64,000 nt of DNA from a virus (lineage: Duplodnaviria > Caudoviricetes), in IMG/VR virus record IMGVR_UViG_3300001580_000011, positions 34,257-98,256 of that record; one strand, given 5' to 3'. Below are positions 13,068 to 32,060 of the stretch, piece by piece (the stretch's first letter is position 1; every line of letters begins with the position of its first letter). A model generated the notes under the pieces. It saw only the letters and a program-made list of their open reading frames with translations, did not search any database and was not told where the DNA came from. The position numbers and the translations under genes were made by a program.

Positions 13068-13096
13068 TTTACATCTTACTAATAATTTGATATAAT
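13068..13096 (+). promoter_or_regulatory. Early promoter
   Basis: TTTACA-17-TATAAT with extended TG. Confidence 0.65.
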
Positions 13097-13870: not shown

Positions 13871-14218
13871 ATGTTTGAAGATATTCTTGGACCAAATAAA
13901 TCGAATATGACCGATACCTCTGCCAGACATGGATGCGGCCGTCCTAGGCTAACGTGTAATGGTAAGTGTAATGGAATAGATGTTGATGGCCAACATATTT
14001 ATTTCAATTATGTAGATATAAGCAACGGTAAAACATATAATATCAAATACCGTTGGCCGGATGCTATTATGAAAAAAATGTTCGTAAAAGACGACCCGGT
14101 TGAAATAGTGTTTTATGATGGTAAATTCAAAAATGTTTCAATACAAAAGTGCCGTCGGCTGGATATTCGTAGTAAAAAATGGGATTTCATTGATATACAG
14201 GATATTATAAAACGATGA
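13871..14218 (+). CDS. Hypothetical protein with N-terminal MFEDIL motif
   Basis: Paralog of 12302. Confidence 0.7.
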   Translation: MFEDILGPNKSNMTDTSARHGCGRPRLTCNGKCNGIDVDGQHIYFNYVDISNGKTYNIKYRWPDAIMKKMFVKDDPVEIVFYDGKFKNVSIQKCRRLDIRSKKWDFIDIQDIIKR

Positions 14219-14577
14219 AAAAAATTCTCAAAATAAAAAGTATATCCGCACCGAGCAAAATATATAAATATATTACATTCCAAATTATAGAACAATCACA
14301 TCGAGGTTCTAATTTTGGTGACGAATCATCTGATTTCTCGGCTTCTAACGGTATTGTTTTGGCATCTTCCTTGTTCCCGCAGATAGGATATACAGCATTT
14401 TATGTGCGTGGAACAAACCACGATGAAGACGATAAAATATTGAAAACTACATCTAAAACTTTTGAGAGAATTCAATTTGCCATACAAGAATATAATAATT
14501 TCTTTAATGGAAAGAAAATTTCTATCGGACAAGACGATTATATCAAAAGGATAGGTATCTCATATAACGATATTTAA
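14215..14577 (+). CDS. EQSHR-family protein with tag B
   Basis: IIEQSHRG..ASNG..FYVRG..AIQEYN; GQDDYIKRIGI near the C-terminus. Confidence 0.75.
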   Translation: MKKILKIKSISAPSKIYKYITFQIIEQSHRGSNFGDESSDFSASNGIVLASSLFPQIGYTAFYVRGTNHDEDDKILKTTSKTFERIQFAIQEYNNFFNGKKISIGQDDYIKRIGISYNDI

Positions 14578-14867
14578 GTATGTCATAGTAAGATTTTACT
14601 ATTGGAAATACCCACGGATATATTTTGGGCCATAATCATCGGCCGATGGAAAACAGAAAAAACTTTTATAAAAAGTGTATCGAGCATTAGTAGTGGTAAT
14701 GAAAAAATGTAAACACGTATATCAAATAGAAAAACATGGAAAATATTTTCTCGTAAAATGTATAAAGTGTAGACAAAGATTGTTTTGTGAACATTTTTCA
14801 GAAAAATATTTAATATGTGATGATTGTATAAACATTCTTCGTAAAAACATTTTAAAAGGAAAGTATT

Positions 14868-15137
14868 ATGATTAATAAAAACAAAGAAATGAGAGCAGGT
14901 TGGATACATGAATTTTATATATCGTCAACGGCCACACATCCTTACCTCTATTATATTCCGGTAATATTTACGGATACGGTTATTCTTTATACGGAAAACG
15001 GGATAAGTGAAATTGGTAAATACAAAATAAGTGAAGTAGAAAAATCTTATTATAAAATTATTCCTATAAAAAAATTCGATACAGCTGAACCAAAAATTGG
15101 GCAGGATGAATATCTTAAAAGAATGGGCATAAGGTAG
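14868..15137 (+). CDS. Hypothetical protein with tag B
   Basis: Ends GQDEYLKRMGIR. Confidence 0.7.
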   Translation: MINKNKEMRAGWIHEFYISSTATHPYLYYIPVIFTDTVILYTENGISEIGKYKISEVEKSYYKIIPIKKFDTAEPKIGQDEYLKRMGIR

Positions 15138-15211
15138 TATAATTTTATAAAATATTTTCTACTGTTAACCAAAAGATACATATAACACACCGTTTTTACT
15201 CATCTTTTCTT

Positions 15212-15241
15212 GTTTACATATACCTTCAACTATGATATAAT
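15212..15241 (+). promoter_or_regulatory. Early promoter
   Basis: GTTTACA-17-TATAAT (T4 early-like). Confidence 0.75.
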
Positions 15242-15264
15242 ATCTCATATTTGGAGGTTTAATC

Positions 15265-15654
15265 ATGAAGAAAGAACACGCTGAAAAATTATTGAAGGAT
15301 TTTCCCTATCAGTTTTCGTACTATCACGATCACACAAAACCCATGATGCCAATGGTATTTGGATTTGAGTGTGGTGATGGTTGGTATGAGATCATTTACA
15401 ATCTCACCAAGAAATTATCGGAAGTATCGCCCACTACAAAAGTAATGCAAGTCAAAGAGAAGTTTGCTGGCCTACGTTACTATGTCGATTCATGTAATGA
15501 AGAAGGTTTCGAATTGATTAATCAAGCAGAAAAATTATCGTATAAAACCTGTGAAAATTGTGGTTCGATGGAAGATGTAAAAATAAGAGGAAAATACTGG
15601 GCACAAACCCGTTGTGAAAAATGTAAAGACGTTTCAGCGAGGGATACGAGATGA
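15265..15654 (+). CDS. Conserved phage hypothetical protein
   Basis: ECGDGW..QVKEKFAGLRYY..CENCG..C..C, a pattern common in large phages. Confidence 0.75.
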   Translation: MKKEHAEKLLKDFPYQFSYYHDHTKPMMPMVFGFECGDGWYEIIYNLTKKLSEVSPTTKVMQVKEKFAGLRYYVDSCNEEGFELINQAEKLSYKTCENCGSMEDVKIRGKYWAQTRCEKCKDVSARDTR

Positions 15655-15690
15655 AAGTAAAATCTTTGATACAAAGAGGTCATTGGGTAT

Positions 15691-15978
15691 ATGATACAAA
15701 AACCGAAAAATCAAAAACCATTGAATGGTGAATCATATCTGACAGCTAAGATTGTGACTTCCAAATATTCTACATTTTGGTATGAAAGGGAAATAGGTGA
15801 ATTGTATTATATTTGTCCTACAAGACGACAACATCGTCCATATCGTAATGGAGCTCCCGGTGATTGGTATTATGAGGTAATAGGCCCCTTTGCCAGTAAA
15901 AGATTTTTATTGGAACGCGATATTGAAATAGTTGTATTAGATGAATATAAAATTCCAGAAGAGTTATTTGAAATATGA
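15691..15978 (+). CDS. Hypothetical protein with tag A (start uncertain)
   Basis: Ends IPEELFEI. Confidence 0.65.
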   Translation: MIQKPKNQKPLNGESYLTAKIVTSKYSTFWYEREIGELYYICPTRRQHRPYRNGAPGDWYYEVIGPFASKRFLLERDIEIVVLDEYKIPEELFEI

Positions 15979-16187
15979 AAACAAAAGTGAGATATATTGG
16001 TGATAAGGACTGTTGGGGATTTGTACAAAATTTCATTTATGATGTAACAGATATTGACGAGTTAAGCGGTAATATATTACCATATTGGATTGTTTTGAAT
16101 AGTGGTATCAGAGCATCTGGTATGGCTTTCATGAAAGAAGATGCTGTGATCGTATCAATAATTCCAGACGAGTTATTTGAAATATGA
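15975..16187 (+). CDS. Hypothetical protein with tag A
   Basis: Ends IPDELFEI. Confidence 0.7.
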   Translation: MKTKVRYIGDKDCWGFVQNFIYDVTDIDELSGNILPYWIVLNSGIRASGMAFMKEDAVIVSIIPDELFEI

Positions 16188-16539
16188 AGTGTGATAATCG
16201 TAACGGACTATTTGGTGGATATAAAGCCTCCATTAATTGTACAAATAAAGCGATATGGAAAATAACCATAGATCGAAACGAGGTCAATATAAAACCGATG
16301 TATGTGTGTGATTCATGTTCTTTCCATATTTCAAAGACAATAAAGAAAAGGTTTGAATTACACGGGAGAGAAACAATAATTGAGATGGAGAGAATATTAT
16401 AAAGTGGAAAAATAGTGAAGAATTTGAACATAAGAAAAAAAGAATAGCTGAATGGCATAGGGAGCATAGGGAAGTAAAAGAAAGGTAATAGGCCGTATAA
16501 AATATTATGGTAATTATTTCACTTATGAATGAATAGAAT

Positions 16540-16797
16540 ATGAAAAAGATATTTCAAATGAACATAACCGATTCAAACTTGAAAAAAATTGGAAAATACA
16601 AATATGATAAATTTGTACAGGATTATAGAAGATGTGGTGGCAGGTTTTATGTGTTCAATGACCAAATTGGAAACAGTGTAATATATGTGGAAAGATCATA
16701 TGACCCAAAATTATACTGGATTGTGATGAAGAAAAATGGTATGCTCATTGACGTGCCTATAGAAGTTACACTGGATGGAGGTCTATTTGAGATATGA
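16540..16797 (+). CDS. Hypothetical protein with tag A
   Basis: Ends LDGGLFEI. Confidence 0.65.
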   Translation: MKKIFQMNITDSNLKKIGKYKYDKFVQDYRRCGGRFYVFNDQIGNSVIYVERSYDPKLYWIVMKKNGMLIDVPIEVTLDGGLFEI

Positions 16798-16983
16798 AGG
16801 TAAGAGCGATAAAAGCCAAATATGATGATGTGTGGTATTATAATGATATAGGAAAGATTTTTGAAGTAGAAGAAAAATTATATATGTCAACTTACTATCT
16901 ATTGAAAAACCGACCTTATGAAACAATCAGAGGCTTCCGTATTTCAGATGTAAAAGTTACCGGACGAATTATTTGAGATATAG
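16794..16983 (+). pseudogene. Small protein whose tag A lies out of frame
   Basis: The ORF stops at 16976, but 16957-16983 reads LPDELFEI* in another frame. Confidence 0.55.
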
Positions 16984-16995
16984 AAAGAACGAATT

Positions 16996-17334
16996 ATGAA
17001 ACGAGAATTGTTATTTTCAGTGACAAAGGACGATTTTGATGTTCAAACGTTCAAAGCTGGTGGTAAGGGCGGGCAACACCAGAACACCACAAATACAGGT
17101 GTTCGTATCATTCATAAGGAATCTGGTGCAGTAGGTGAATCCCGTGAAGAACGGTCACAGGCACAAAACAAGAAAGTTGCCTTCCGTAGATGTATTGAAA
17201 CAAAGATATTTCAATTATGGTTGAGACTCAAATCATCTGCCCGTATGAAAGGAATATATGATATTGAGAAACATCTTGACAAGATGATGGAAGAAAAGAA
17301 TATCAAAGTAGAAACCTATACACCAAAGGAGTAA
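16996..17334 (+). CDS. GGQ-domain peptidyl-tRNA hydrolase (release factor/ArfB-like)
   Basis: GGKGGQHQNTTNTGVRIIH..ERSQAQNK. Confidence 0.88.
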   Translation: MKRELLFSVTKDDFDVQTFKAGGKGGQHQNTTNTGVRIIHKESGAVGESREERSQAQNKKVAFRRCIETKIFQLWLRLKSSARMKGIYDIEKHLDKMMEEKNIKVETYTPKE

Positions 17335-17814
17335 TAAAATGTCTAAATCACCTGAAATGGAAAAAATTTTAAACGATATATCGAAACGCATGTATGGGAG
17401 AGAAAGGAACTCTAATATGTGTGTAGTTTGTGGTTCCGATAAGGTAAAACCAACCGATTTCAAGGATAATCTGTCTCGAAAGGAATATACCATTTCCTAT
17501 ATGTGCCAGAAATGTCAGGATAAAGTGTTTTTCGACAATGGAGAACAATAAAACAGTTATATTATTTGGTAAAATAAAATCAAAAGTGCAAGTAGGCCGA
17601 TACTGACATATGAGGGCTGTAACGTTATACAGGATAAACAAGCTAAGTATATCATGAGCCTTATTTGCAAAGACTCCAAGGCCGAGAACAAGCTGGAAAA
17701 GATAATGGAAAAAGTGGACGAAGTTATATTAAACCGCCAAGAAAACGAAGAACATCCTTATCTAGGAGATGTTTTCGACGAACTCAGGCAAATTACCTTC
17801 ACGGAGAGAAAGAG

Positions 17815-18246
17815 ATGAAACTGGAAACAGCGCAGAAGTTACAATGGCCGTGGCCTACAGAATGGGTTTACCTTGTAAAAAAAACCGGGCACATAGAGTC
17901 TCGCCACAAAAAAGAGTCCTGGGGTAAGTATTACGATCTACAAAAAGTAATACAAAACCCCTCTGTCGAGGAGATGCTGGAGAGGATGCCGAACTTTATC
18001 TGTAAAAATGCCAGCGATCCGGTTCTTTATAAAGCGATTATCTGGTCGGATAGAGACTTTAGTGTTGGATACCGTGGCGGCAAGGGGGAGGGGTTTATGC
18101 TTAATTTTCCCGATAACCTCGCCGAAGCCCTCGCCCTTCTCTGCATCTGGCTTCGGGACAATAAACTAATGGATTGGAAGCGAGAAGAGGTGGGAAATGA
18201 AGAACACGTTAAGGCATCTAAAAAAATTGGATGGAACAACTCATGA
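17815..18246 (+). CDS. Phage hypothetical protein
   Basis: ATG after SD GGAGAG; PSVEEMLERMP...NLAEALALLCIWL. Confidence 0.6.
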   Translation: MKLETAQKLQWPWPTEWVYLVKKTGHIESRHKKESWGKYYDLQKVIQNPSVEEMLERMPNFICKNASDPVLYKAIIWSDRDFSVGYRGGKGEGFMLNFPDNLAEALALLCIWLRDNKLMDWKREEVGNEEHVKASKKIGWNNS

Positions 18247-19037
18247 AAAAATGTCTAGAATGTGGTAACTGGAGTGTTAAAGTATTAAGTAGTCAAGAAG
18301 AGCAATGCTTGGCCTATGGTTGCTCATACAAAGTAATATATTCAACAGACCGAGAAAGAATATTGGAATTAGAAAAACAAGTCAAATATTTAAACACTAT
18401 CATAGTGGAGTGGTCAAGGGAAAGAGGGGAGTTATGAACATAGACCGATTTATCGCTGAGAATGTTATGCACGTTTGCTGGCATAAGGCCGATGAAACTT
18501 CGTGGTACGGAGAACGGTGTTCTTTATGTGGATTAAACACAATGGATGATGATAATAAATTGTTTTCTTTAGTTGAAACACTTCATCCCAATTATTCAAC
18601 CGGAAAACATAAAACCGACTTGATGAACTTCTGCGTAGAACAGGAATGGTGGCTGAAATTTTGGGATTGGGCTTATTTCGATAATTATCTACCAACAGGA
18701 GAATATAGAAAATCGTCAGGACCGCTTCATGCTGTATTCACCGCCTATCTCTGGCGCAGCCTACGTGAACTGGTGGCGGTTTATCATGGGTATAAAGAAT
18801 GATATGAAAACATTTGCAACGGGCGAAATTGTAAGATGGGGTGATTCATTATGGATAGTATCGGAATCGAGAAAAGATAAACTGGTATTACTTAGCATGA
18901 ATCGTGCTAATTGCTCTGCCTATATATCGGAAAATTGGCCAATAAAGAAATCGGACAGACAAGTGAAATGGGTAGCTAATAGTGTATATGATTTTATCAC
19001 TCGCACACTAAAAAATGTAGGAAAATAATTTTATAAA

Positions 19038-19400
19038 ATGGATGTATTTGATTTTATATTAATATGCCTTCCGATTGCTGCTTTTGTTTGTACTAATGTT
19101 TTTTATTTTGTTAGAACATTAAACAGAATAAAAGAAGATATAAAGAGGATAGAACAAGAGCAAGCTAGAAGGGCAGAAGAAGCTCGAAGAATATTGTCTG
19201 CAGCTAGGGTGGAAAGACAAAAATTAATATCATATATGAACTTGGTTGGAATTACCCACCCATTTACTAAAGAAGAAATTTCAAAGAAAAGGAGGGTCCT
19301 TAGTTTAAAATATCATCCAGATCGTAATAACGGAAAAGACGATAAAATGAAAAGAGTAAACGAAGCGTGTGATTATTTAGAAAAAATGTCACAAGGATAA
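19038..19400 (+). CDS. Membrane-anchored J-domain (DnaJ-like) protein
   Basis: N-terminal TM; KYHPDRN..MKRVNEA. Confidence 0.85.
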   Translation: MDVFDFILICLPIAAFVCTNVFYFVRTLNRIKEDIKRIEQEQARRAEEARRILSAARVERQKLISYMNLVGITHPFTKEEISKKRRVLSLKYHPDRNNGKDDKMKRVNEACDYLEKMSQG

Positions 19401-19585
19401 GGAAAAAGATTTACTTGAAGCTAGGGAAATGGAACACGTAAGAGAAAGTAACCATCGAATAATACTCTTATAGGGGATAGTTTTATAATGGATTTACAAA
19501 AAGTCATCATCACTAGCCAAAGACCTTGTATACATTTATGTGAATAGGTGATATAACAGAAAGAAAATCAGTAGGAGATTAGAGG

Positions 19586-19810
19586 ATGAAGAAGTTATTT
19601 TGTATATTATTGGTTGTTTTACTTACTGGTTGTGGTATTCCATTCACCAAGATAGATATGTCATTATATCAAAATGATTACCTTGAGTGTGAATGGGAAG
19701 CCGATAGGGTGGCCGGATATTATAAAGGTGGCCCTCACGCTGAACAACTTATAAAATGTATGGAAAAAAGAGGATATAATACACATAGGGAGTATGTTGA
19801 AATGTTATGA
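19586..19810 (+). CDS. Lipoprotein
   Basis: MKK-hydrophobic-LTGC lipobox; CMEKRGY; paralog of 20108. Confidence 0.75.
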   Translation: MKKLFCILLVVLLTGCGIPFTKIDMSLYQNDYLECEWEADRVAGYYKGGPHAEQLIKCMEKRGYNTHREYVEML

Positions 19811-20108
19811 AAACATTTATAACAGCAATCATAATGGTATTGGCATCAACCAGTTTTGCTTTAGCGGACACAGGAAGAATATATGATGATCGGGGGTTGG
19901 AACAAAGACAGAAGAGGGTAGGTATTATTCACCCGATGGGAAGTATCAAGGGAAAGAGGTAGATGGCCGATATTACTCAAATGACGGCAAATATGTAGGT
20001 AAACAAGATGGTGATAGATACTACTCAAGTGATGGTTCATATAGAGGTAAAGAAGTGAATGGCCGTCTGTATAATACAACTGGGAAATATAAAGGGAGTA
20101 AGAGATAA
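19807..20108 (+). pseudogene. Frameshifted secreted beta-repeat protein
   Basis: Signal peptide plus GRIYDDRG in one frame; four GRYYSxDGKYxGK-like repeats continue in another frame. Confidence 0.65.
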
Positions 20109-20374
20109 TGAAGAAGTTACTTGGTCTATTGATAATGTGTTTTATGCTAACTGGATGTGCAACACATTTTACAAAGAATGATATGTCAAGAATAAATGAT
20201 GATAAAACCGAATGTCTGAGTCTTGGTTCACAAGCAGGATTATCTGCTGATACTTTTATAGTTTATATTGATTGTATGGAAACCAGAGGATATGTAACTG
20301 ACCCCGAATATAAGAAAGGATTTGTTGATGCTTACCAGAAGAAAGAAGCTTCATTGAAAAAGTATAAACAATAA
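20108..20374 (+). CDS. Lipoprotein
   Basis: LTGC lipobox; CMETRGY. Confidence 0.75.
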   Translation: MKKLLGLLIMCFMLTGCATHFTKNDMSRINDDKTECLSLGSQAGLSADTFIVYIDCMETRGYVTDPEYKKGFVDAYQKKEASLKKYKQ

Positions 20375-20749
20375 ACACTATCTTCATATTTTATATCTCC
20401 TTAGCAATAATAACATAACTAGCCAAAAACCATAATACAAAAAATAATAACATAATTACAAAAAGTCATCATTACAAAAAGTCATCATTACTAGCCAAAA
20501 ACCATATTATATAGGGTAAATCTAATAAGGAGGGATAACAATGGAAGATTTGCAAAAAAGTCTCGTTACCAAAATTGGTGAGCAATTGAAGTCTGATAAA
20601 CCAAACATACAATTGCTTGACGTATTGAACCGATTGTTGGGAACAGTCAATAACTATCTTGTTGCTATAAGAGGTTACTGATAGTAATATCCCCTATAGG
20701 AATAATACTCTTATAGGGGATAGTTTTATAAAATCAATAACATATTCTT

Positions 20750-20779
20750 GTTTACATTTATATGAATAGGTGGTATAAT
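20750..20779 (+). promoter_or_regulatory. Early promoter within a repeated intergenic cassette
   Basis: GTTTACA-17-TATAAT; upstream AATAATACTCTTATAGGGGATAGTTTTATAA is also present at about 19459. Confidence 0.7.
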
Positions 20780-20807
20780 AGAAAGAAAAGTAGTAGAAGA
20801 GTGTAAA

Positions 20808-21080
20808 ATGGATTTTGAGACAAATTTGAGGTATGAACAGGAAAAAAAGTCAGAAGTGTTGGGGGCATTACTTTCATTTATTTTGCCCGGTATAGGTAGT
20901 ATGTATGCTGGGAAGGTAGGTAAAGGAATTATGTTCCTTTTCGGCGCGATCATTGGTTATATATTATTTGTCATCCCCGGCTTGATCGTTCACCTGTTTT
21001 CTATCATATCAGGATATAATGATGTAAAGATTTCAAATACCCTTTTGGGATTGGAATATCTCAAAAGAGAGAAAGAGTAA
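20808..21080 (+). CDS. TM2-domain membrane protein
   Basis: KKS...LLSFILPGIGSMYAGKVGKG. Confidence 0.8.
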   Translation: MDFETNLRYEQEKKSEVLGALLSFILPGIGSMYAGKVGKGIMFLFGAIIGYILFVIPGLIVHLFSIISGYNDVKISNTLLGLEYLKREKE

Positions 21081-21084
21081 GATT

Positions 21085-21441
21085 ATGAAAAAGATATTGT
21101 GTATAATAATTGGATTGGTTATGGTATTGTTTACTAATAATGTCTTTGCTCAATGGGGAACACCTGTTTTAAGGGAAAGAGATTTAATGATTATTGGTAA
21201 TGAGGATATGGTTGATTCGCTATGTCCAGCACAACAAAGTATAAACAAGTGTTGGCAGAAAGTAATGACAATAAAAAGTGAACCTACCTATAGTAAAGAT
21301 AGGAAACTTCAAATGAATGCTTATAATTGGAGTGAAGAATGTAAGGTGATTGAGAAGAATTATAAAACTTGTGAAAGGGTATTAAAGAAGATTCGTGCAC
21401 AAGATTTAAAGGATTGTAAGAAGGCCGGGTATTGTAAGTAA
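21085..21441 (+). CDS. Secreted Cys-containing protein
   Basis: Signal peptide ending VFA; six Cys in the mature part. Confidence 0.65.
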   Translation: MKKILCIIIGLVMVLFTNNVFAQWGTPVLRERDLMIIGNEDMVDSLCPAQQSINKCWQKVMTIKSEPTYSKDRKLQMNAYNWSEECKVIEKNYKTCERVLKKIRAQDLKDCKKAGYCK

Positions 21442-21784
21442 GGGTATAACGATATAAAAAGTAGCAACCAATCTATCACTACACAAAAACCCTATCATTT
21501 AATCCCCGACTGAACATATAGCATCTCAGCCCATTCTTATTCGATAATTCATATTACATCATTGTGTAAAGTGTCACCTTGGCACCCCTTTCATATCAAT
21601 ACTCTGCAGACTACTCCCGGTTTTATACTTTTTACACTGAAAACACTATACATCACCCCTTCTACAGTAACCAAAATATAAAATATTATATCACTGTCGG
21701 TATTCTTTACACATTAGTGTCGGTATTCTTTACACTCGATTAATTATTCTTGTAAGTTATTGATATTATGTAGAAAAATTAATT

Positions 21785-21814
21785 GTTTACATTTATGTAC
21801 ATAGGTGGTATAAT
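21785..21814 (+). promoter_or_regulatory. Early promoter
   Basis: GTTTACA-17-TATAAT. Confidence 0.75.
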
Positions 21815-22269
21815 AGTATTATAAACAATTGGAGATTAACAGATGAAAGATAAAAGGGAACGTAGGAAAGAGCTTTTTAAGATATCGGTTAAACCGGATA
21901 CCTCGTCTGATTATCCCGATGAAATGGAGATTGCTTATACTAAGAACGGTTTCCAGAAAACTATTTTTAGTTTGTTGCCCGAGGAAATGGAACAATTTAT
22001 TTTGGTTTTTCAGGACACTCTGAAAAAAATACAGAGATAAGAGGAAATATGGCCAGAGGACGTAAAATAGATGTTAACAGTGTTCGCCATCGGAAGTTTT
22101 GCAAGAGGCTTGAAAACGTTGACAGGTATATGAATGCTGTCACGCGTGGTATTGAACGTGGAAACAAGATGTATACAAATTCCTATGATGTAGCCCTGGC
22201 TGTTATAACGGAGCTTCGGATTGACGGATTCCAGATTATTCCCCACCCTACCAGGAAAGGTGACAAGTA

Positions 22270-22656
22270 ATGCCTAAGATGAAAGTGTATAACGATAAAA
22301 ACATCATTCGTTTAAAGGGTTTTGGTGAAACTAAATCCTGGGTTCGTAAGAACATCAAAAACAAGGGTGGCGTTGTAGACCCCGATACTTATGAATGGGT
22401 TATGCCTAATAAGGATCGTTATGTCGTGTATGCTGTGGGTGTTCGTTTAATTCCTGCCAGTGAAGTGGCTAAACGTAAGAAAGTTAAACCTGTAAACTAT
22501 GCCACCACTGATGATTTGGGTGATGTGAAAACCCCGGTGGAAAAGAAGGTTCGTGTTAAACGGGCTGTGAAAGACCCTGTTGTCAAGGTGTTAAAGCTTC
22601 GTATTGTTCGTAAACCCACTAACGGTAGCAAGATTATCAATTTGAGGATTAGGTAA
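22270..22656 (+). CDS. Basic hypothetical protein
   Basis: 128 aa, Lys/Arg/Val-rich. Confidence 0.65.
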   Translation: MPKMKVYNDKNIIRLKGFGETKSWVRKNIKNKGGVVDPDTYEWVMPNKDRYVVYAVGVRLIPASEVAKRKKVKPVNYATTDDLGDVKTPVEKKVRVKRAVKDPVVKVLKLRIVRKPTNGSKIINLRIR

Positions 22657-23551: not shown

Positions 23552-23767
23552 ATGAGTATGTATACAGATACGAATTTTAAGACCAAGAAGGCTTTGAAAG
23601 AGGCAGTGGCCACTGGAAAGAAAATCGGATATTACCAGCCGGGGCCTTTTGGTGGTAATGAACCTAAAGACGGAACGATTTTTTTGGAAGGGCCGTGGTA
23701 TCCTCAGCCCCATAACTGGTACGCTAAGGCTATAGTTAAAAACGGTATTATTGTGAAGGTTACTTAA
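23552..23767 (+). CDS. Conserved phage hypothetical protein
   Basis: NFKTKKALKEAV..GPWYPQPHNWYA. Confidence 0.7.
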   Translation: MSMYTDTNFKTKKALKEAVATGKKIGYYQPGPFGGNEPKDGTIFLEGPWYPQPHNWYAKAIVKNGIIVKVT

Positions 23768-23804
23768 TTTTTTAAAAAATTAAGTAACCTTTTATAAATA
23801 AATA

Positions 23805-24230
23805 TGTAGGAAAGAAATTTAAGCTTAGTACTACCAGAGCAGATGAGATACCAGTGGTATCGTTCTTTTGAGACATCGTAAAGCCAAGCGTCAGGAACAG
23901 TAAGGGTTTTATAACTACAACAAGGCAGTTTGTAATACTGCCTGGTATTGGACCGTAAAAAAATTACGATAGTAGGACCATAGTTGAAAACAGAAAGCAG
24001 GTGATTAAGCCAGCAATCCTGTCGTAAACAGCAGTTTGTAACACTGCTTGGTAATAGACCAAAAAGTTACGGTATAATTAGTCGAAAGCAGAAAGCAGGT
24101 GATTAAGCCAGCAATCCTGTAATAGACAAGGGTACAGCGACTATACCCCGTGAACCTTTGGTAGCAGTTAGACGATAATTAACTTCGTAATCCTGTGAAA
24201 AAAGACGAACGAAAATAGGACTATTTTCGT
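23805..24230 (+). ncRNA. Putative structured ncRNA with a tandemly duplicated ~98-nt domain
   Basis: No credible ORF; follows TATAAATA at 23793; identical 32-mer at 23991 and 24089; covarying hairpins. Confidence 0.55.
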
Positions 24231-24548
24231 GCAATATAAACAAGGTGTATATATGAAGCAAGCTACCTGGGTTAAATGTAATGGAGAGGCACATGGCAAT
24301 CCGTATATCGACCATTGTATGATATGCATACCCTATTGGGGCGAATATCCGATTTGTCCGTATTGCAATTCTACGCACCTAGGTAATGGTGTCACTAGAA
24401 CCAAGTGCAAGAAATGTGGTAAAATGGTAAGTATGAAACGGGATATCGTCCCTATATAGCGTCAAAATTTTGACGCTATTGGTATTTCGAGGTCATAACC
24501 GTATATGAAAAATCTTGCAACTATTTGATTATATTGAGAAACATTTTT

Positions 24549-24578
24549 GTTTACATTCCCTGCCGGATATGATATACT
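24549..24578 (+). promoter_or_regulatory. Early promoter
   Basis: GTTTACA-17-TATACT. Confidence 0.7.
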
Positions 24579-24968
24579 ATAGGTATAGACAATCGGAAAG
24601 GAAAAAGATTGAGAGTACAGGCCCCCCGTTATAGAGTAATCACGAATTTGGTTGAAATCGCTCAGATTCTTGCCTCAACCCGTAGGATTATTGAAAATAG
24701 TAATGGTGACTTGAACGCAATGGCTATTGTATCCAATCTTGGAATGATTGCCGAGGATTTGACTGATTTAGGTCAGACCATTGCCGCCAATCACGTTGCT
24801 ACCGCCGGAAAGATTCTTTTTTCATATCCCATGTATCGTAACAATCATATCGTTGACCGTGAAACCCTGATTCAGATTATGGGTAACATTTCCAGCGCCA
24901 TCATTTTTATCACCGATCATCGTTTTTATCACCGATAACCCTACCCGATAACATATAGGAGATTTAAT

Positions 24969-25370
24969 ATGTTTGGAAAGAAAAATACTACCGACGGTTT
25001 AACTTACAATTTTAATACCAACGGCAAGCTTGAGATTCAGCTCAAGACTAAAAACCGTATGGGTGACAAGACCAAAACCAAGTGGATGCCTGCCACGCCT
25101 AACGTGTTCCGGTCTTTCCATGGCAAGCGTAGGGTAAACGGTGTAAACTTCAAGGGGCAGGTGTTCTGCTTTATGACCAACGCCAAGTACGGTATTGACG
25201 CCTTTATGGACGGCTATAAAACAGCCCCTGTAAAGTCCCGTATACCCGAAAAGAAGCCCCTTTCCATCCAGATTGTGAAGAAGGGAAATTCCAATGGTTA
25301 TACCATGGCTGCCATTACCGATTTTTCTACCGGTAAAACTACAGTGAAGTTTCGCCCTTTTGGGAAGTAA
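24969..25370 (+). CDS. Hypothetical protein
   Basis: 133 aa, SD AGGAG. Confidence 0.65.
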   Translation: MFGKKNTTDGLTYNFNTNGKLEIQLKTKNRMGDKTKTKWMPATPNVFRSFHGKRRVNGVNFKGQVFCFMTNAKYGIDAFMDGYKTAPVKSRIPEKKPLSIQIVKKGNSNGYTMAAITDFSTGKTTVKFRPFGK

Positions 25371-25516
25371 CAGCTCCCTTATATAACATATGTTGTATGT
25401 GTGGACATATCAGATTATTATATAGCCACCATATGACAATCCTCGGAGAGCTGTGTGATTATTGTGTAATAGAGTTGGAAACAAAAAAATTATAACAACA
25501 AAAGGAGATTTACCAG

Positions 25517-25738
25517 ATGAAGAAGACAGCAAAGCCCGCAACAGACACCAAGGCCCCCGCCAAGGCAACCGCAAAGAAGCCTGAGGCGCCCAAGACCGTT
25601 ACCGGCACCCTCAAGTATAACAAGGACACCAAGCGCTTCCACGCATACGATATCAAGGGTGGAACCTTCAATGGTGCCGTGTATTTCGAGAAGGATGGCG
25701 ATATCCCTAAGACCATTACCCTGACCATCGTTTCGTAA
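25517..25738 (+). CDS. Small basic protein with a histone H1-like K/A/P-rich N-terminus
   Basis: MKKTAKPATDTKAPAKATAKKP; strong SD; codon usage rich in C/G-ending codons. Confidence 0.7.
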   Translation: MKKTAKPATDTKAPAKATAKKPEAPKTVTGTLKYNKDTKRFHAYDIKGGTFNGAVYFEKDGDIPKTITLTIVS

Positions 25739-25985
25739 TACGAAACCTATATGATACCCTATGCAAGATCGGCGGTGTCTTTTGATGCCTAACCGGGGCT
25801 GTACAGGGTATCATATAAATATAATTATACTGTATCGGAAGGGGGTGATTATCTTCTACACTGAATAACAGTTAGACCATATTTAGATTGTATTAGAATG
25901 AATTAAAATGACTATCGAAGGACTAAAGAAACCAATGAAGTAAGACTGTTACACTATTAACTTAAATTGATATTAGGGTTATTAT

Positions 25986-26035
25986 AAACCCCTATCCCAC
26001 AGGTCTTCGGATGTCTGGCAGATAGGGGTTTTTTT
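25986..26035 (+). terminator. Intrinsic terminator
   Basis: AACCCTATC...GATAGGGGTT followed by a T run. Confidence 0.6.
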
Positions 26036-26243
26036 ATGCCCATCAATTCAATCGAAAAATTTATAACTAGGAAATTCCCATATAAGGGGTATTATGTCCC
26101 CAATATGTCCCCTTACACTATAGTGTCACCTTACAAAACCTTACATAGTGTCACCTTACAAAACCTTACACTACAGTATATAGCAAGGTGAAAAAAGGTG
26201 AAAAAAGGTGAATTTAAGATATAAATATATGTAACTATTATGT

Positions 26244-26678
26244 TTGGAGGGTGACAAGGTGAGTAAATTGAATAGAGATAAGGTGTTTTATGAAGCAAAG
26301 ATCGAGAATGTCCCTGTTGATGTTCTAGCAAAGAAATATTCAGTAACTCGTAAGTCAATATATCAAATCCTACAAGGCTTTGATAAGGATGATAAGGTAA
26401 GGATATTAAAGGTTGAGATTGAAAGATTAAAGGCTATGAATGAAAAACTCAATGTACATTCTTTATTGAGAACTGAAATTGAGAAGCTAAAAAGGGTGAT
26501 AGACGATATATGGGTGAATAAAGGTGAAAAAAGGTTACAACCCGATACCAAACCCAATAGAAATGGGGATAGAGAGGGTGACACTGATGTACCCTCAATC
26601 AAGGATATATTTGCAAATAGAAACGGTAATGGTATCAAGAGGGCCACTGATGAAGATTGTGGTGGTATATTCGAATAA
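26244..26678 (+). CDS. HTH plus coiled-coil DNA-binding protein
   Basis: VDVLAKKYSVTRKSIYQIL HTH; TATAAATA at 26220. Confidence 0.65.
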   Translation: MEGDKVSKLNRDKVFYEAKIENVPVDVLAKKYSVTRKSIYQILQGFDKDDKVRILKVEIERLKAMNEKLNVHSLLRTEIEKLKRVIDDIWVNKGEKRLQPDTKPNRNGDREGDTDVPSIKDIFANRNGNGIKRATDEDCGGIFE

Positions 26679-26964
26679 TGAAAGAAACCACCACCTTTCA
26701 ATACTCCAAAGAATGTATACCGGTATATGTACTATATGATATAATACCCTGTATATACAGGTACTTAAGTACTATGTACATCCGATGTAACATATGGTAT
26801 AATGAATGTATAAAATAAGGTTAACCTACATATAATGTAGGCCTATGGGTCTACATTATTTGGAAATAATAATTAATTATAAATTAATTATTACATTATT
26901 TGGAAATACCCTAAAAACGGGTTAACCCTTATGAAAACAGGTGCTGAAATTGCAGGAATTAGCT

Positions 26965-27180
26965 TAGATATGCACTTGCTTATTCAATTACAGGGAGTTA
27001 TCAGCTTATAATTGCAACTATGCACTTGCTTATTCAATTACAGGGAGTTATCAGCTTATAATTGCAACGTTGCACTATTACAGGTAGATATGCACTTGCT
27101 TATTCAATTACAGGTAGATATGCACTTGCTTATTCAATAGTTATCAGCTTATTTAATTACAACGTTGCACTATTACAGGT
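26965..27180. repeat. Modular direct-repeat array in 10-bp register (iteron-like)
   Basis: Exact 50-bp tandem unit at 26969 and 27019; TATGCACTTGCTTATTCAAT occurs four times. Confidence 0.9.
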
Positions 27181-27425
27181 GGTTATAAAAAAATTGCTGG
27201 GCCGGGAAAATATATTATAGGGGAGATTAATATGTCTGTAAGAACAAAAAACCGTATTATAGGATGGTGTTTGATCGGTATTCCAATCCTGATCGTAACA
27301 ATTCTTCTAATGATTGAATTTGGATCTGTACCGGTATTACAATTCATAGCTGGATTTGGTGCTATCGTAATAGGTATTACGATGGTTGCTGTAGGTATAT
27401 TATATATATCGGGAGAGTATGATAA

Positions 27426-27758
27426 ATGAAAAGAGTGTTATCTGTAATCGTGGTAACGTGTTTCCTGTTTACGATGGTAGGGTGCGGGTCGAACAAAAAT
27501 ATTCCCATTAAAGACAAGGAAGGAAAGTATCGGACTTATACGTTTCAGCAGGTTGGGCTGTTCAATCAGGAAAAGAAAAACCCCCAAGTCGAATATAGTG
27601 TGATCGTTGGTAACGTGATTTGGGCAGTTATTCTCTGTGAGACTGTTATTGCACCTGTTGTTATTTTCGGTTGGTATCTGTATGAACCGATTGGTACATC
27701 TGTTGAAGGTGTGCCTGGTGCTGTGGAGCCTCCACAGCATGCTGTGGAGGATAGATAA
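27426..27758 (+). CDS. Lipoprotein/membrane protein
   Basis: MVGC lipobox; GNVIWAVILCET...GWYLYEP. Confidence 0.7.
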   Translation: MKRVLSVIVVTCFLFTMVGCGSNKNIPIKDKEGKYRTYTFQQVGLFNQEKKNPQVEYSVIVGNVIWAVILCETVIAPVVIFGWYLYEPIGTSVEGVPGAVEPPQHAVEDR

Positions 27759-28138
27759 TGTTGGAATGGTTGTTGATAGCTATTGTAATATTGGTTATAC
27801 TGATATTATATTTGGATAATCGGATAAACAAATGAAAAGATATTTTATTCCCGATAAACACGGTGTACCGTGGACGGATGCTTTTCGTGAGGATATGGAT
27901 CGACAGGGATGGAAGGCGGAGATTATAAGTGAGTATCATTTCGATACTTTCGATATATATCGTACGGAAGAAAGTAAAAAAAAGTATAAGACGATTGGAG
28001 TGTTAATAAAAAATGTGGTAAAATAATTGTAGAGGAAATTCGAATAATAGACGATAATAGAGAAATGAAAAGAGAATTATATATAAAGCTTGTTTCTTGT
28101 AGTGTATTTATTGTGCTTGGTTTCTTTGATCGTAAACA

Positions 28139-28570
28139 ATGAGTTGTTTGAAAAATAAAAAATTGCCGGCGGCGGGAAATTTTGAAAATGGGGAGTTTAC
28201 GCTTTTTATGAAAAAGAATTTGAAAATAGCATGGATATCGAAATCTGTCGATAGTGTAGTGTTTCGGATTATTGAACAATCTCACCGGAACGATGATTTT
28301 TCAAATCTGTTGGAAACGGAGCCGAATGAATATCTTTGCCCGGATACGAAGTTAAGGATTATTTCCTGTAGTATGCCTGAGTGGGATACGATTGGAAAAA
28401 TCCTTTTTGTTCGAGGTTCAGATAGACGACATGACAATGATGAAATGTTGGTTTCTGTAAAAGAATTCGAAAAAATTGAAAAAGCGGTGGAGAATTACAA
28501 TCGAGAACATAATGGGTTTGAACCGTTAAAAATAGATTGTTTACAGGACGATCTTTTTATAATAGAATAA
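28139..28570 (+). CDS. EQSHR-family protein with tag A (true start probably the ATG at 28208)
   Basis: IIEQSHR..PEW..LFVRG..AVENYN; ends LQDDLFIIE. Confidence 0.75.
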   Translation: MSCLKNKKLPAAGNFENGEFTLFMKKNLKIAWISKSVDSVVFRIIEQSHRNDDFSNLLETEPNEYLCPDTKLRIISCSMPEWDTIGKILFVRGSDRRHDNDEMLVSVKEFEKIEKAVENYNREHNGFEPLKIDCLQDDLFIIE

Positions 28571-28576
28571 AAGAGA

Positions 28577-28891
28577 ATGGTTTCGTCTTTCGGGGCTATC
28601 TCTGTTGGTGCGAAAAAGACGACAATAGGTGGTTTTCTCGTGGAAAAAAAGACATATATAGTGAAATATATAGGAAATCGTATGGGCGATATAATGACTT
28701 CGAAATGGACCGGTAGTCTTTTTCTGGTGACGGACGGGGGAGCTTCATGGAATATTGTAGACGTTCTCCATTATGAAAACCCGTTCGAACTGGACCGCCA
28801 GGGGGACAACTCGTTTTTTAAATTCAATGCAGAAGTCGTTCAAGGTTATACGATGGTTGAATTGGAAGACGATTTATTTAAATTGGAATAA
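28577..28891 (+). CDS. Hypothetical protein with tag A
   Basis: Ends LEDDLFKLE. Confidence 0.7.
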   Translation: MVSSFGAISVGAKKTTIGGFLVEKKTYIVKYIGNRMGDIMTSKWTGSLFLVTDGGASWNIVDVLHYENPFELDRQGDNSFFKFNAEVVQGYTMVELEDDLFKLE

Positions 28892-28987
28892 TATATGGAA
28901 ACGTTTATTTTTTTATTTTTATCGGCAGCGGCAATTATAACCGTTATTATCTGTATGTTTTTTGACGAATAGAAGGGAACGGATATT

Positions 28988-29197
28988 ATGGTAAGAATAT
29001 GTGAAAGAGTGAATAGTTGTCGCGTGGGCGATAATTGTCCAATTGGTGCTGGGTCTCGACATGAATGTGCCGGAACTCCGTTTTTTTGTGATGTAATATA
29101 TGCACGAGTATCCTGTATTATCGCTCCCGATAAATTAAAAAAAGAACCTATATTCGGTAACGATGAATATCTTAAACGAATGGGAATAGTAGAATAA
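28988..29197 (+). CDS. Cys-rich small protein with tag B
   Basis: Six Cys; ends GNDEYLKRMGIVE. Confidence 0.7.
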   Translation: MVRICERVNSCRVGDNCPIGAGSRHECAGTPFFCDVIYARVSCIIAPDKLKKEPIFGNDEYLKRMGIVE

Positions 29198-29199
29198 TC

Positions 29200-29481
29200 A
29201 TGACGAAAAAGTTTATTATAAGATACAAATATAGTCCTACCGATTTAATTTTTATTTGTACGAAGCAAATCAGAACGGAAATGGACCTTTATCGTAAAAA
29301 AACAGTGGAGATTTGGAAATATTGTGTTGAAAGGGAAATAACTCCCGGCTATGAAGGCAGTACGCGATATAGCAATGTAGAATTTAGATTGAACGATACA
29401 TTATGTACCGTCGAACCCTATAAAAAAAATGCAATTGACGATTTCTATCAAGACGATTATTTGAGAAGGATCGGTCTATGA
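29200..29481 (+). CDS. Hypothetical protein with tag B; paralog of 29478
   Basis: IFIC.K..EITP; ends QDDYLRRIGL. Confidence 0.7.
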   Translation: MTKKFIIRYKYSPTDLIFICTKQIRTEMDLYRKKTVEIWKYCVEREITPGYEGSTRYSNVEFRLNDTLCTVEPYKKNAIDDFYQDDYLRRIGL

Positions 29482-29735
29482 AATATCTTGTAATTTATAA
29501 CTGGAAAATCCATAACGATAGAAAATCTCTTTTCATTTGTGTTAAAAAAAATAATTGTTTTATTATCGAAGACGATATAACGCCGGATGGAAATAATTAT
29601 TATGGTGGACAGGGAAATCGTTTTGTCGGCCATAAAATTAATGATTTTTCAGAGTATATTGTAGCAGTAGAGAAATATAATGAAATTAAATGGGAACTGG
29701 ATGAAGATAATTATTTGAGAAGGATTGGCTTATAA
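29478..29735 (+). CDS. Hypothetical protein with tag B
   Basis: LFICVK..DITP; ends EDNYLRRIGL. Confidence 0.7.
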   Translation: MKYLVIYNWKIHNDRKSLFICVKKNNCFIIEDDITPDGNNYYGGQGNRFVGHKINDFSEYIVAVEKYNEIKWELDEDNYLRRIGL

Positions 29736-30064
29736 TGAGAGAATATATTGAAATAGAAGTTATTGAGATAACCAAAAAAACTGCACTTGTCCGTATAAAA
29801 AAACAGTCACGTAGAAATTTTGTTTGGGAATCGAAAAGACATCCTGGATGTAGACTTCAAGCAGATTTTTTTCCAGATATTCATATTATAAATGAGAGAA
29901 AAAAATTATTTGTTTTTTATTTAAGAGGCCGTACCGTCAGGCGCGATAATACCGATATTTGGATGCCTCGATGGGCATATAATATTTTAATAGATATGAT
30001 AATGGAGTATAACTGTATTTCAGAAGAAATTTTTTTATTGGATGAAAAATTATTTAAAATATGA
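29735..30064 (+). CDS. EQSHR-family protein with tag A
   Basis: IKKQSRR..FYLRG..MEYN; ends LDEKLFKI. Confidence 0.7.
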   Translation: MREYIEIEVIEITKKTALVRIKKQSRRNFVWESKRHPGCRLQADFFPDIHIINERKKLFVFYLRGRTVRRDNTDIWMPRWAYNILIDMIMEYNCISEEIFLLDEKLFKI

Positions 30065-30117
30065 AAATCGACTGAGCGGGTATTTTTGAATAATGTTTTA
30101 AAAGGTGGATAAAAAGA

Positions 30118-30483
30118 ATGCAAGTGAATAAGAAAACATATTTGTATATTTGTGAGGAAACAGAGTGTTCTCTTCATAAGACATGTGGATACGGTATACC
30201 TCATGTTTGTAAGAGGTCACACGTTTGTCATTATTGTTATTCTTTAAGAAAAGAAGTTAATTGTATTCCTTCTTCACAAAAGATAACTTATGTGAGGTGT
30301 GTGGAAGCTAGATCATGTAATAGGTCAAGAGGTCGTTGTAGATTAGCGGTTCCCGATTTTCGAAGGACGCATTATCAAACCTGTCCTTATGATAATAATA
30401 TAAAAATTTCATTTGAGGAATACGATACCGATTTATTGGAAAGAAATTCCGACAATGAATATTTAAAAAGAATGGGATATTGA
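30118..30483 (+). CDS. Cys/His-rich protein with two repeats and tag B
   Basis: Ends DNEYLKRMGY. Confidence 0.7.
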   Translation: MQVNKKTYLYICEETECSLHKTCGYGIPHVCKRSHVCHYCYSLRKEVNCIPSSQKITYVRCVEARSCNRSRGRCRLAVPDFRRTHYQTCPYDNNIKISFEEYDTDLLERNSDNEYLKRMGY

Positions 30484-30484
30484 T

Positions 30485-30826
30485 ATGACAGAAAGAAAAT
30501 ACATAAAATTGGATATTATTTTACGGACATATTTCGAGGTAAAATTTAAGATATCGGAACAATCACATCGAGGTCCTGTCTTTGTCGATCCGCTGCAAAA
30601 AAATTTTAAAGCATCTAATGGTATAATATTGATATCGGATGATATGCCAGAATGGAGGGCGTGGCCGAAAATCTTTTTTGTAAGAGGGAAGCAAAAAAAC
30701 GGTGATAATAATGTTTTGTCCTGTTCTATAAACGATTATACTCATATAAATGAGGCTATAGAGGAGTATAATAAGTCGTTTGCCACTTTTAATATTATTT
30801 TTAATGAGGATTTGTTCACAATATGA
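30485..30826 (+). CDS. EQSHR-family protein with tag A
   Basis: ISEQSHRG..ASNG..PEW..FFVRG..AIEEYN; ends NEDLFTI. Confidence 0.75.
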   Translation: MTERKYIKLDIILRTYFEVKFKISEQSHRGPVFVDPLQKNFKASNGIILISDDMPEWRAWPKIFFVRGKQKNGDNNVLSCSINDYTHINEAIEEYNKSFATFNIIFNEDLFTI

Positions 30827-31038
30827 GAACAAATATAAGAAAAGAGGCGGTTCAATGTGAGTTTGCAAATGTCTGTACGCATTCATGCATACATGGAGCA
30901 AAGTGGCCTCATGCCAAATCTACATCGTGTTTGGGGTTTACTTGTGATGTTATACATCAAAAAGTATGTTGTGTTTTTGTGAAAGTCGATAGTGTGAGTG
31001 CAGTTGATGAATACCTCAAAAGGCTTGGCCAAGATTGA
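30823..31038 (+). CDS. Cys/His-rich protein with tag B
   Basis: Ends VDEYLKRLGQD. Confidence 0.7.
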   Translation: MRTNIRKEAVQCEFANVCTHSCIHGAKWPHAKSTSCLGFTCDVIHQKVCCVFVKVDSVSAVDEYLKRLGQD

Positions 31039-31049
31039 TTTACAGTCTA

Positions 31050-31078
31050 TTTACAAATATGTGAAAAGGTGTTATAAT
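31050..31078 (+). promoter_or_regulatory. Early promoter
   Basis: TTTACA-17-TATAAT. Confidence 0.65.
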
Positions 31079-31843
31079 ATGATTATGAGATTATACAGAT
31101 GTACAAAATTTACAAAAGATTGTTATCCTTGTGATCATAGGTATCGACATTCCTATAATTCAGGTACTTGCTCGACAACCTGCCAACACGATAAGGAAGC
31201 AAAATGTGAGTTGTGTGAGGGTGATATGTATATAAATGAAAAGCGTGACATGGCTCTTGCTGAGGCAAGAGAAGAGAAGTATCTTGATCGTATGGGTAAA
31301 TCTATCGAAGATATTACTCAAATATTAAGAGAACAGGATACGTCAACATGGGAGGGGTTTGGTGCCCTTTTACATTGGGCAAGAGAACAGGATTGGTGGA
31401 ACGATTTTCTTGAAGAAAATGGTATGGTTATTCAGAAAGTTGTTGACGGTGATACCGAACCTGCTATTTTTGAGTATTTCCCCGTAACTCTTATGGACCC
31501 GGATGAATTTGCTGATGCTATTTCGGCCTATCTGGACGAGTTAAATGAGCAGAAAGAAAAGGACCCGACAGACGATAATGATGAAAGTGGAGGGGAGAGT
31601 ACAGAAGTTACTGAACCGCCTGAATCTAATATTTTTTTAGGTTCATGTAGTGGAAAAGTATGGTCAAATTGCATAAAAGAAAAGTGTGATCATTATTTGG
31701 ATCACGATATTACAAATTGTAAGTCATTTTATTGTCATAATATAAAAAGAAGTGTGTGGTGTGTTACTGTAAAAAAAACTATAACGGAATCTCAACGGAT
31801 TGGTGGTCATGCAAAAGATGTCTGGAGTACAAGTAATTTGTAA
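31079..31843 (+). CDS. Multidomain protein with two Cys/His-rich domains and an internal tag-B-like segment
   Basis: EEKYLDRMG after the first Cys domain; acidic linker; start placed after the promoter. Confidence 0.65.
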   Translation: MIMRLYRCTKFTKDCYPCDHRYRHSYNSGTCSTTCQHDKEAKCELCEGDMYINEKRDMALAEAREEKYLDRMGKSIEDITQILREQDTSTWEGFGALLHWAREQDWWNDFLEENGMVIQKVVDGDTEPAIFEYFPVTLMDPDEFADAISAYLDELNEQKEKDPTDDNDESGGESTEVTEPPESNIFLGSCSGKVWSNCIKEKCDHYLDHDITNCKSFYCHNIKRSVWCVTVKKTITESQRIGGHAKDVWSTSNL

Positions 31844-32060
31844 TGCAATGAAGGAAAATTTATGTAAAAATAAAGGTCCTTTATGCAGTCACGCCGTTCC
31901 TCATTTATCAAGTGAATGTATTAGATTGGATGCTTCAAACGACTGTATTTTTTCAAATTATAAAATACATGAATGCTTTCCAATTACTGTAGGAACCGCA
32001 TTTTGTGTTGAGTGTGAGGATATATTATTAACGGATTATATGAAAAGAATAGGAATATAA
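31800..32060 (+). CDS. Cys/His-rich protein with tag B
   Basis: CSHAVPH; ends TDYMKRIGI. Confidence 0.7.
   Translation: MVVMQKMSGVQVICNAMKENLCKNKGPLCSHAVPHLSSECIRLDASNDCIFSNYKIHECFPITVGTAFCVECEDILLTDYMKRIGI

Follow-up and report, generated by a model that had tools for sequence, protein, structure and literature searches.

Why should small proteins of diverse make-up, encoded by one phage, end in the same short peptide? This question is raised by a 64 kb window (the whole stretch of DNA analysed here) of the 98,256-bp IMG/VR virus record IMGVR_UViG_3300001580_000011, where the core Y-[LIM]-[KR]-R-[MIL]-G lies at the end of eight small proteins. We call this peptide tag B, to tell it apart from a second, acidic C-terminal peptide of the same region, tag A (for example ..DDLFKLE). 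We found that tag B sits on a conserved tail of small proteins which appear to be expressed early, and we hypothesise that it is a docking peptide bringing diverse early proteins to one partner, a reading to which we give about an even chance.

A six-frame search of the whole record found the core eight times, always on the plus strand and always 1-6 residues ahead of the stop codon of a plausible early gene, when the mean expected by chance was 0.015 and the maximum one (2000 residue shuffles of 196 open reading frames). All eight C-terminal copies listed by the sequence-only reading of this DNA proved real, although the coordinates it gave were gene starts and not positions of the peptide, and the whole-genome pattern search that it had suggested recovered the strict core at these eight places only. 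An unbiased count of C-terminal four-residue words also ranked EYLK and YLKR first, with words from tag A next. Together with two copies from the sister phage G001, three from the metagenome contig L116 and one from a further ortholog (P0091), the 14 instances give the consensus [DN]-[DEN]-Y-L-[KRE]-R-[IML]-G-[ILVY], in which Tyr, Arg and Gly are invariant (Gly in 14/14). The Gly is followed by 1-27 variable residues, the first of them being mostly hydrophobic and conserved, as expected for a helix cap. The peptide has only three or four hydrophobic residues and two acidic ones at its front, with a net charge of 0 to +1, a mean hydrophobicity of -0.1 to -0.4 and a hydrophobic moment of 0.4-0.7. 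Its codons vary synonymously for Leu (CTT/TTG/TTA/CTC), Arg (AGG/AGA/CGA) and Gly (GGT/GGC/GGA), as had been noticed before.

The eight carriers, named B1 to B8, are all encoded on the plus strand. B1 (14215..14577, 120 amino acids), a member of the EQSHR family, carries DDYIKRIGI at 14533-14559 followed by the five residues SYNDI, and B2 (14868..15137, 89 amino acids), an ORFan without any homolog among 5.8 billion proteins, carries DEYLKRMGI at 15105-15131 followed by R. Further downstream come B3 (28988..29197, 69 amino acids, Cys/His-rich), with its tag at 29162-29188 and then VE; B4 (29200..29481, 93 amino acids) with DDYLRRIGL at 29452-29478; B5 (29478..29735, 85 amino acids) with DNYLRRIGL at 29706-29732; B6 (30118..30483), a long Cys-rich protein of 121 amino acids with NEYLKRMGY at 30454-30480; B7 (30823..31038, 71 amino acids, Cys/His-rich) with DEYLKRLGQ at 31006-31032 and then D; and the Cys-rich B8 (31800..32060) with TDYMKRIGI at 32031-32057, which measures 86 amino acids from a TTG start and 80 from the gene caller's ATG at 31818. 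Tag-A genes of the same strand are set among them. Two stand at the head of the cluster (28139-28570, ending ..DDLFIIE, and A28577, 28577-28891, ending ..DDLFKLE), the EQSHR-like A29735 (29735..30064, ending ..DEKLFKI) lies between B5 and B6, and a member of the EQSHR family (30485..30826, ending ..EDLFTI) lies between B6 and B7. The interleaving of the two kinds from 28.1 to 32 kb, with no protein carrying both, holds within the window as first described; the record has 12 carriers of tag A and eight of tag B.

The bodies in front of tag B are diverse, as had been claimed, and include Cys-rich, EQSHR and other proteins. To count eight unrelated ones would nonetheless be an overstatement, since B3, B6, B7 and B8 are paralogs with a common N-terminal Cys/His-rich module (B7 and B3 are 38% identical), leaving about five independent bodies, namely the Cys-rich family, EQSHR (B1), B2, B4 and B5. 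The likeness of B1, B2 and B3 at their ends extends past the core (IGQD..), with 80% identity over 15 amino acids between B2 and B3. The carriers (69-121 amino acids) had zero matches in Pfam and PHROGs, no relatives of them were present among GenBank phages (megablast, tblastn), and a search of IMG/VR for relatives with B4 and with a neighbouring 203-amino-acid gene returned none. A Cys-rich match ending ..DEYFKRMG on contig L052 was rejected because its frame is non-coding. Elsewhere in the window, a 90-amino-acid membrane protein with two helices (20808-21080) ends in ..LGLEYLKREKE, a partial core Y-L-K-R that lacks the Met-Gly.

The strongest evidence for selection on the peptide came from the metagenome contig L116 (1,818 bp), which is syntenic with 28.6-30.3 kb of the window and encodes orthologs of A28577, B3, B4, B5, A29735 and B6 at 45-70% identity, every one of which has kept its own type of tag. 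The B3 ortholog is 45% identical overall and keeps FGNDEYLERMGI, followed by an acidic extension of 27 amino acids with a charge of -13, and the best-conserved stretch of this pair is the tag region itself, FGNDEYL-K/E-RMGI. The orthologs of B4 (66% identity) and B5 (58%) end in NNYLKRLGL and DDYLKRIGV, and on the tag-A side the ortholog of A28577 keeps ..DDELFELE and that of A29735 (57%) ends in ..DERLFEI. P0091, an ortholog of B6 (54% identity), has a diverged linker and keeps the end ..NDYLKRMGY; P0090 is the corresponding match for B8. In the sister phage G001/G002 (97 and 71 kb), tag B closes two proteins, ..DDDYLKRIGAK and ..KNYLERLGVE, and tag A about 14. Compared with the L116 orthologs, the tag-B DNA differs at 4-8 of 27 nucleotides, against 10-16 of 30 in the preceding ten codons, and the replacements within the peptide are conservative (D/N, K/R, I/L/V), pointing to purifying selection at the level of the protein. 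A lack of conservation in related phages, which the earlier reading had named as evidence against a functional tag, is not what we see, as the orthologs in L116, P0091 and G001 keep it. The acidic extension of the L116 protein (317-607) also contains DDDLLRDLE, which resembles tag A, so that one protein of a relative may carry both kinds of tail.

The peptide appears to be a separate unit on its protein. In an AlphaFold model of B1 built with 14 family members, residues 1-100 form a beta sheet and a long helix at a predicted local distance difference test score (pLDDT) above 90, and the tail (105-119) falls below 50 with a four-residue helix at tag B. The EQSHR body had no significant match in the PDB (Foldseek E >0.6; VIA Z <=4.8), with PH- and OB-like hints only. 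In cellular genomes the octapeptide D-[DE]-Y-[LF]-K-[RS]-M-G occurs at 73 loci, of which about eight are truly C-terminal; it is common inside enzymes, and because it ends helices there we read tag B as a likely self-capping amphipathic turn, with Asp or Asn as the N-cap and Gly as the C-cap, followed by a hydrophobic residue. The short amphipathic helix first proposed is in this way retained in part: in the B1 model the tag is an independent short peptide, inclined to form a helix, at the end of a flexible tail, and it can be exchanged with tag A on EQSHR proteins. Five paralogs of that family carry tag A and B1 alone carries tag B, in the same position; since all homologs found elsewhere have tag A or no tag, B1 is the product of an A-to-B swap.

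Several observations concern tag A itself. At 15961-16187 and at other tag-A ends, the +1 frame of the tag-A DNA (TTATTTGAAATA) reads Y-L-K-Y, and a one-base deletion would convert D-E-L-F-E to D-E-Y-L-K, so that one tag might have evolved into the other by way of the +1 frame; we judged it a curiosity, as matching codons occur in only 2/8 tag-B copies. A gene of 60 amino acids (16794-16986) ends in ..VTGRII*, and its +1 frame runs on to the tag-A end KLPDELFEI*. Body and tag are split there by one extra A in the run GTAAAAG, and the homolog in G001 is intact (..LDPKLFEI), so that the tag has been lost either to a recent frameshift or to a mistake in the assembly. A gp32-like single-strand-binding protein of G001 (71453-72403, minus strand; L032 11453-12403) ends in ..DQDLLKELDEL, an acidic Leu-rich tip similar to tag A (..DDLFKLE), so that tag A may imitate the tail of gp32 or clamp-binding tails. 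Tag-A-like tails also occur in a more distant phage, L134 (IMG/VR 3300022700_000269, 26% GC), where three small proteins end in ..KELFEL, ..DDLFEL and ..NDLFEL within 13 kb of a ThiF homolog that is 44% identical to that of G001.

The setting of these genes also bears on what the peptide might do. PHROG matches (tail tube, baseplate wedge gp6, UvsX-like recombinase, SbcD-like nuclease and primase) mark the record as an uncultured, distant T4-like myovirus, with a gp6 about 25% identical to that of cyanophages, and CheckV estimates its completeness at 38%. Small genes of the plus strand are densely packed from about 11.6 to 57.5 kb of the window. A sigma-70-type early promoter, TTTACA-N17-TG-TATAAT (13068..13096, plus strand), lies upstream of the 13.1-15.1 kb operon that contains B1 and B2, and similar sites lie at 15213, 20751, 21786 and 31050. 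Because such promoters stand ahead of the small genes, we take this stretch to be an early region; no enrichment of the late-type TATAAATA was found.

We hypothesise that tag B acts as a short linear motif of about nine residues, portable from protein to protein on a flexible C-terminal tail, which the phage would graft onto small early proteins with at least five unrelated bodies so that all of them dock on one common partner, either a hub protein of the host or an early phage protein; tag A would serve a second, different partner. We favour docking because the tail is flexible, conserved, exchangeable and found on unrelated early proteins, and both the binding and the singleness of the partner are what we infer from this. 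A precedent exists in phage T4, where gp43, gp33 and gp55 bind the sliding clamp by C-terminal tails that are hydrophobic and acidic (Geiduschek and Kassavetis 2010, PMC2988020). Like tag B, these are short, interchangeable C-terminal peptides on flexible or variable linkers of unrelated proteins, and one hub, the clamp, reads them all. On the other hand, the centre of tag B is basic (Lys/Arg-Arg) and its Tyr and Gly are invariant, tag A being closer to the clamp tails in composition, and whereas the T4 tails sit on three replication and transcription proteins, tag B sits on at least eight small uncharacterised ones. No clamp gene was found on the 38%-complete record.

The closest look-alike in sequence appears to be the end of certain large terminases. 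A degenerate DNA scan of IMG/VR found nine loci, with the motif C-terminal in 6/9 (versus about 8/73 in cellular genomes), and one of them encodes a large terminase. Large terminases of the PF20441/phrog_9 type end alike (Geobacillus virus E2 in ..EDYLKMMGW, IMG/VR L005 in ..DEYLKRMGW..), and those of phi3626, phiSM101 and phiHugo have looser versions of the motif. The C-terminal tail of HK97-type large terminases, which comes after the last folded domain, has been described as flexible, and a role in tethering the motor at the portal vertex has been proposed for it. In the HK97/Terminase_1 group the pattern [DE]-[DE]-[YFW]-L-x-x-[ML]-[GW] follows the nuclease domain, and the tag-B peptide itself matches it. 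One version of the docking reading, which we consider distinctly doubtful, is that tag B imitates this tail and docks at the portal or procapsid. The carriers, however, are early and small and have no ATPase or nuclease match in Pfam or PHROG, and the terminase of this T4-like myovirus itself belongs to another family than the HK97 type and is not on the fragment. The resemblance may be convergent.

Several points weigh against docking. No partner was found on the 98-kb fragment, which lacks genes for polymerase, clamp, terminase and portal; B3, B6, B7 and B8, being paralogous, may simply have inherited their tail; the octapeptide often ends helices inside cellular enzymes, so that the terminase likeness may be convergent; and other phages have the motif only once per genome.

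Should docking be correct, its interest would lie in the small early genes of large phages, most of which have no known function and for which a common peptide offers one experimental handle on the whole set; with the tag as bait, a single pull-down could name the hub where the carriers converge. Tag B could also be of use as a search key for more effectors and as a portable targeting peptide. What is new here is the presence of two tags in one genome, alternating among neighbouring genes and exchanged within one protein family; a literature search on the tag peptide strings found no paper on the tag-B peptide or on a two-tag arrangement. If true, two swappable tags would show that phages address effectors in a modular manner, much as short linear motifs serve eukaryotic viruses. 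A wider idea, to which we give a low probability, is that a clade of large T4-like phages uses tags A and B as orthogonal address codes, directing dozens of fast-evolving early effectors to two different hubs and re-addressing them by swapping the last ten residues. In its boldest version, a phage ThiF/JAB system such as that of G001 would attach tag-B proteins covalently through the invariant Gly.

Docking has to be weighed against readings in which the peptide does something else, or nothing. Tag B could be a timed degron that hands early proteins, once the phage has no more need of them, to a host or phage protease of the ClpXP, Lon or FtsH type, with tag A as a second degron class, which we regard as rather improbable. 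It would suit the presence of the tag on many unrelated early proteins, behind sigma-70-type promoters and mostly one residue from the end, and the apparent tolerance of one tag-A gene to losing its tag by frameshift; the basic pair and hydrophobic end (KRIGI, RRIGL) loosely recall the MuA-type ClpX signal. Degrons of the ssrA/MuA type, however, have a fixed position at the extreme C-terminus, and a signal read through the free carboxylate would not allow the variation seen here, from 1-6 residues after the tag in this phage to 27 in the L116 ortholog of B3. The conserved Asp-Asp/Glu-Tyr-Leu is not known from C-terminal degrons, and no gene for a protease or adaptor was seen on the fragment. 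Another reading is that the carriers pair among themselves, either B with B or basic B with acidic A, and assemble into mixed complexes instead of docking on a separate hub. The interleaving of A and B genes in one cluster, the absence of any protein with both tags and the acidic and basic character of tag A and of the centre of tag B would all agree with it; but the two tags differ in number (12 A and 8 B in this record, about 14 A and 2 B in G001) and both tags start with acidic residues, and we hold such pairing to be a long shot. Still less probable, in our view, is that a JAB protease trims the residues after the Gly and a ThiF/E1-like enzyme activates it, attaching small phage proteins covalently to their targets. 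An invariant Gly with 1-27 non-conserved residues behind it has the right form, comparable to the conserved C-terminal Gly and removable residues of JAB-trimmed, E1-activated tails (QbsE/CysO-type carriers, the CD-NTase of type II CBASS), and in G001 a ThiF gene adjoins a Prok-JAB gene, next to genes for RimK-like and Amidoligase_2 proteins. Against this, tag B has no Gly-Gly and its carriers lack a beta-grasp body, the residue after the Gly follows the helix-cap expectation, the 98-kb fragment has no homolog of the module, and none of ten IMG/VR records with homologs of the G001 E1 (up to 204 kb, 85% complete) has a C-terminal tag B; this co-occurrence test gave no support for a ThiF/JAB link.

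Two further readings are disfavoured by properties of the peptide and its DNA. The MinD tail reads F-L-K-R-L-F-G-G, and the core Y-L-K-R-[ML]-G resembles it; membrane-targeting sequences of MinD and FtsA are likewise short C-terminal amphipathic segments with an aromatic-Leu-Lys-Arg-Leu/Met-Gly core, and the hydrophobic moment of tag B would allow a similar role for its carriers at the inner membrane. Unlike those sequences, tag B is nearly neutral and less hydrophobic, with a negative mean hydrophobicity and two leading acidic residues, and it tolerates the strongly acidic extension that the B3 ortholog appends right after it. The sequence-only reading had itself doubted a MinD-like role, with good reason on these grounds, and we consider it very unlikely. 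The remaining possibility is that the tail has no function of its own, having spread among neighbouring genes by duplication and recombination, or that its DNA is conserved as the ribosome-binding site of the next gene. The paralogy of four carriers and the likeness of the B1, B2 and B3 tails beyond the core agree with the former, and for the latter, the Arg-Ile-Gly codons of B4, B5 and B8 contain an AGGA that lies 7-12 nt ahead of the start of the following gene, in a phage where Shine-Dalgarno sites precede 52% of the genes against a background of 11%. Yet B1, B2 and B7 have no coupled downstream gene (the next one lies 127 nt after B2 with its own promoter, and 40 nt after B7 behind the promoter at 31050), the Arg and Gly codons change and the residues stay, Tyr-Leu is invariant though outside any ribosome-binding site, and no other part is conserved as well as the tag in orthologs of 45-66% identity. 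A role as a translational-coupling or Shine-Dalgarno element only, which the earlier reading had raised against itself, fails on the same uncoupled genes and synonymous changes; the whole no-function account is largely refuted, and we consider it extremely improbable. We thus disfavour the membrane helix, the degron read from the free end and the Shine-Dalgarno element by itself, and the docking peptide is the reading that we retain.

One copy of the motif had been placed inside a protein, the EEKYLDRMG (31271-31297) of the gene at 31079..31843 (plus strand), and this ninth copy did not hold up. The gene encodes a fusion of a Cys-rich module, a Trp-rich acidic domain, a linker and a second Cys-rich module, and the segment lies in the N-terminal part of the Trp-rich domain. 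Close orthologs have let it decay (to EEYFDRDG or EEYIDRKF, and to DEEYIDRDG in that of G001), and it was modelled as an ordered coil with pLDDT of about 90-95 (63-sequence alignment); it is an ordered part of the domain and not a tag B. We also considered the Trp-rich domain as a receptor for tag B, on a Rosetta-stone argument, and rejected this because free-standing members own the segment as their ordered N-terminus.

The Trp-rich proteins form a widespread family of small phage proteins without a Pfam model (window 31079-31843 and 18305-18802; P0021-P0084). The domain had 65 matches in the representative library, mostly free-standing proteins of about 100-130 amino acids which start ..ERDKFLTEAMGECWHE.. 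and go on with a Cys pair, FSTWEGFGKLWEWAQxQEWW and PDxFADAVYxYLKE; sometimes it is fused to a Cys/His-rich module, in either order. A literature search on the strings of this family returned nothing relevant. The fusion proteins (window 31826-31843; P0021, P0023, P0024) end in an acidic stretch and V-W-S-T (..DVWSTSNL, ..EEVWST), which may be a third conserved C-terminal motif. In G001, the ThiF/E1-like and Prok-JAB genes belong to a module with RimK-like ATP-grasp, Amidoligase_2, zinc ribbon and HNH genes (L033 11377-16702; G001 91.4-96.7 kb), and two paralogs behind it, ending ..EDEEY and ..EDEQDEY, look like candidate substrates of C-terminal modification. Among the early genes of the window, finally, 16996-17334 encodes a protein of 112 amino acids with a GGQ motif, a release-factor or ArfB-like peptidyl-tRNA hydrolase domain.

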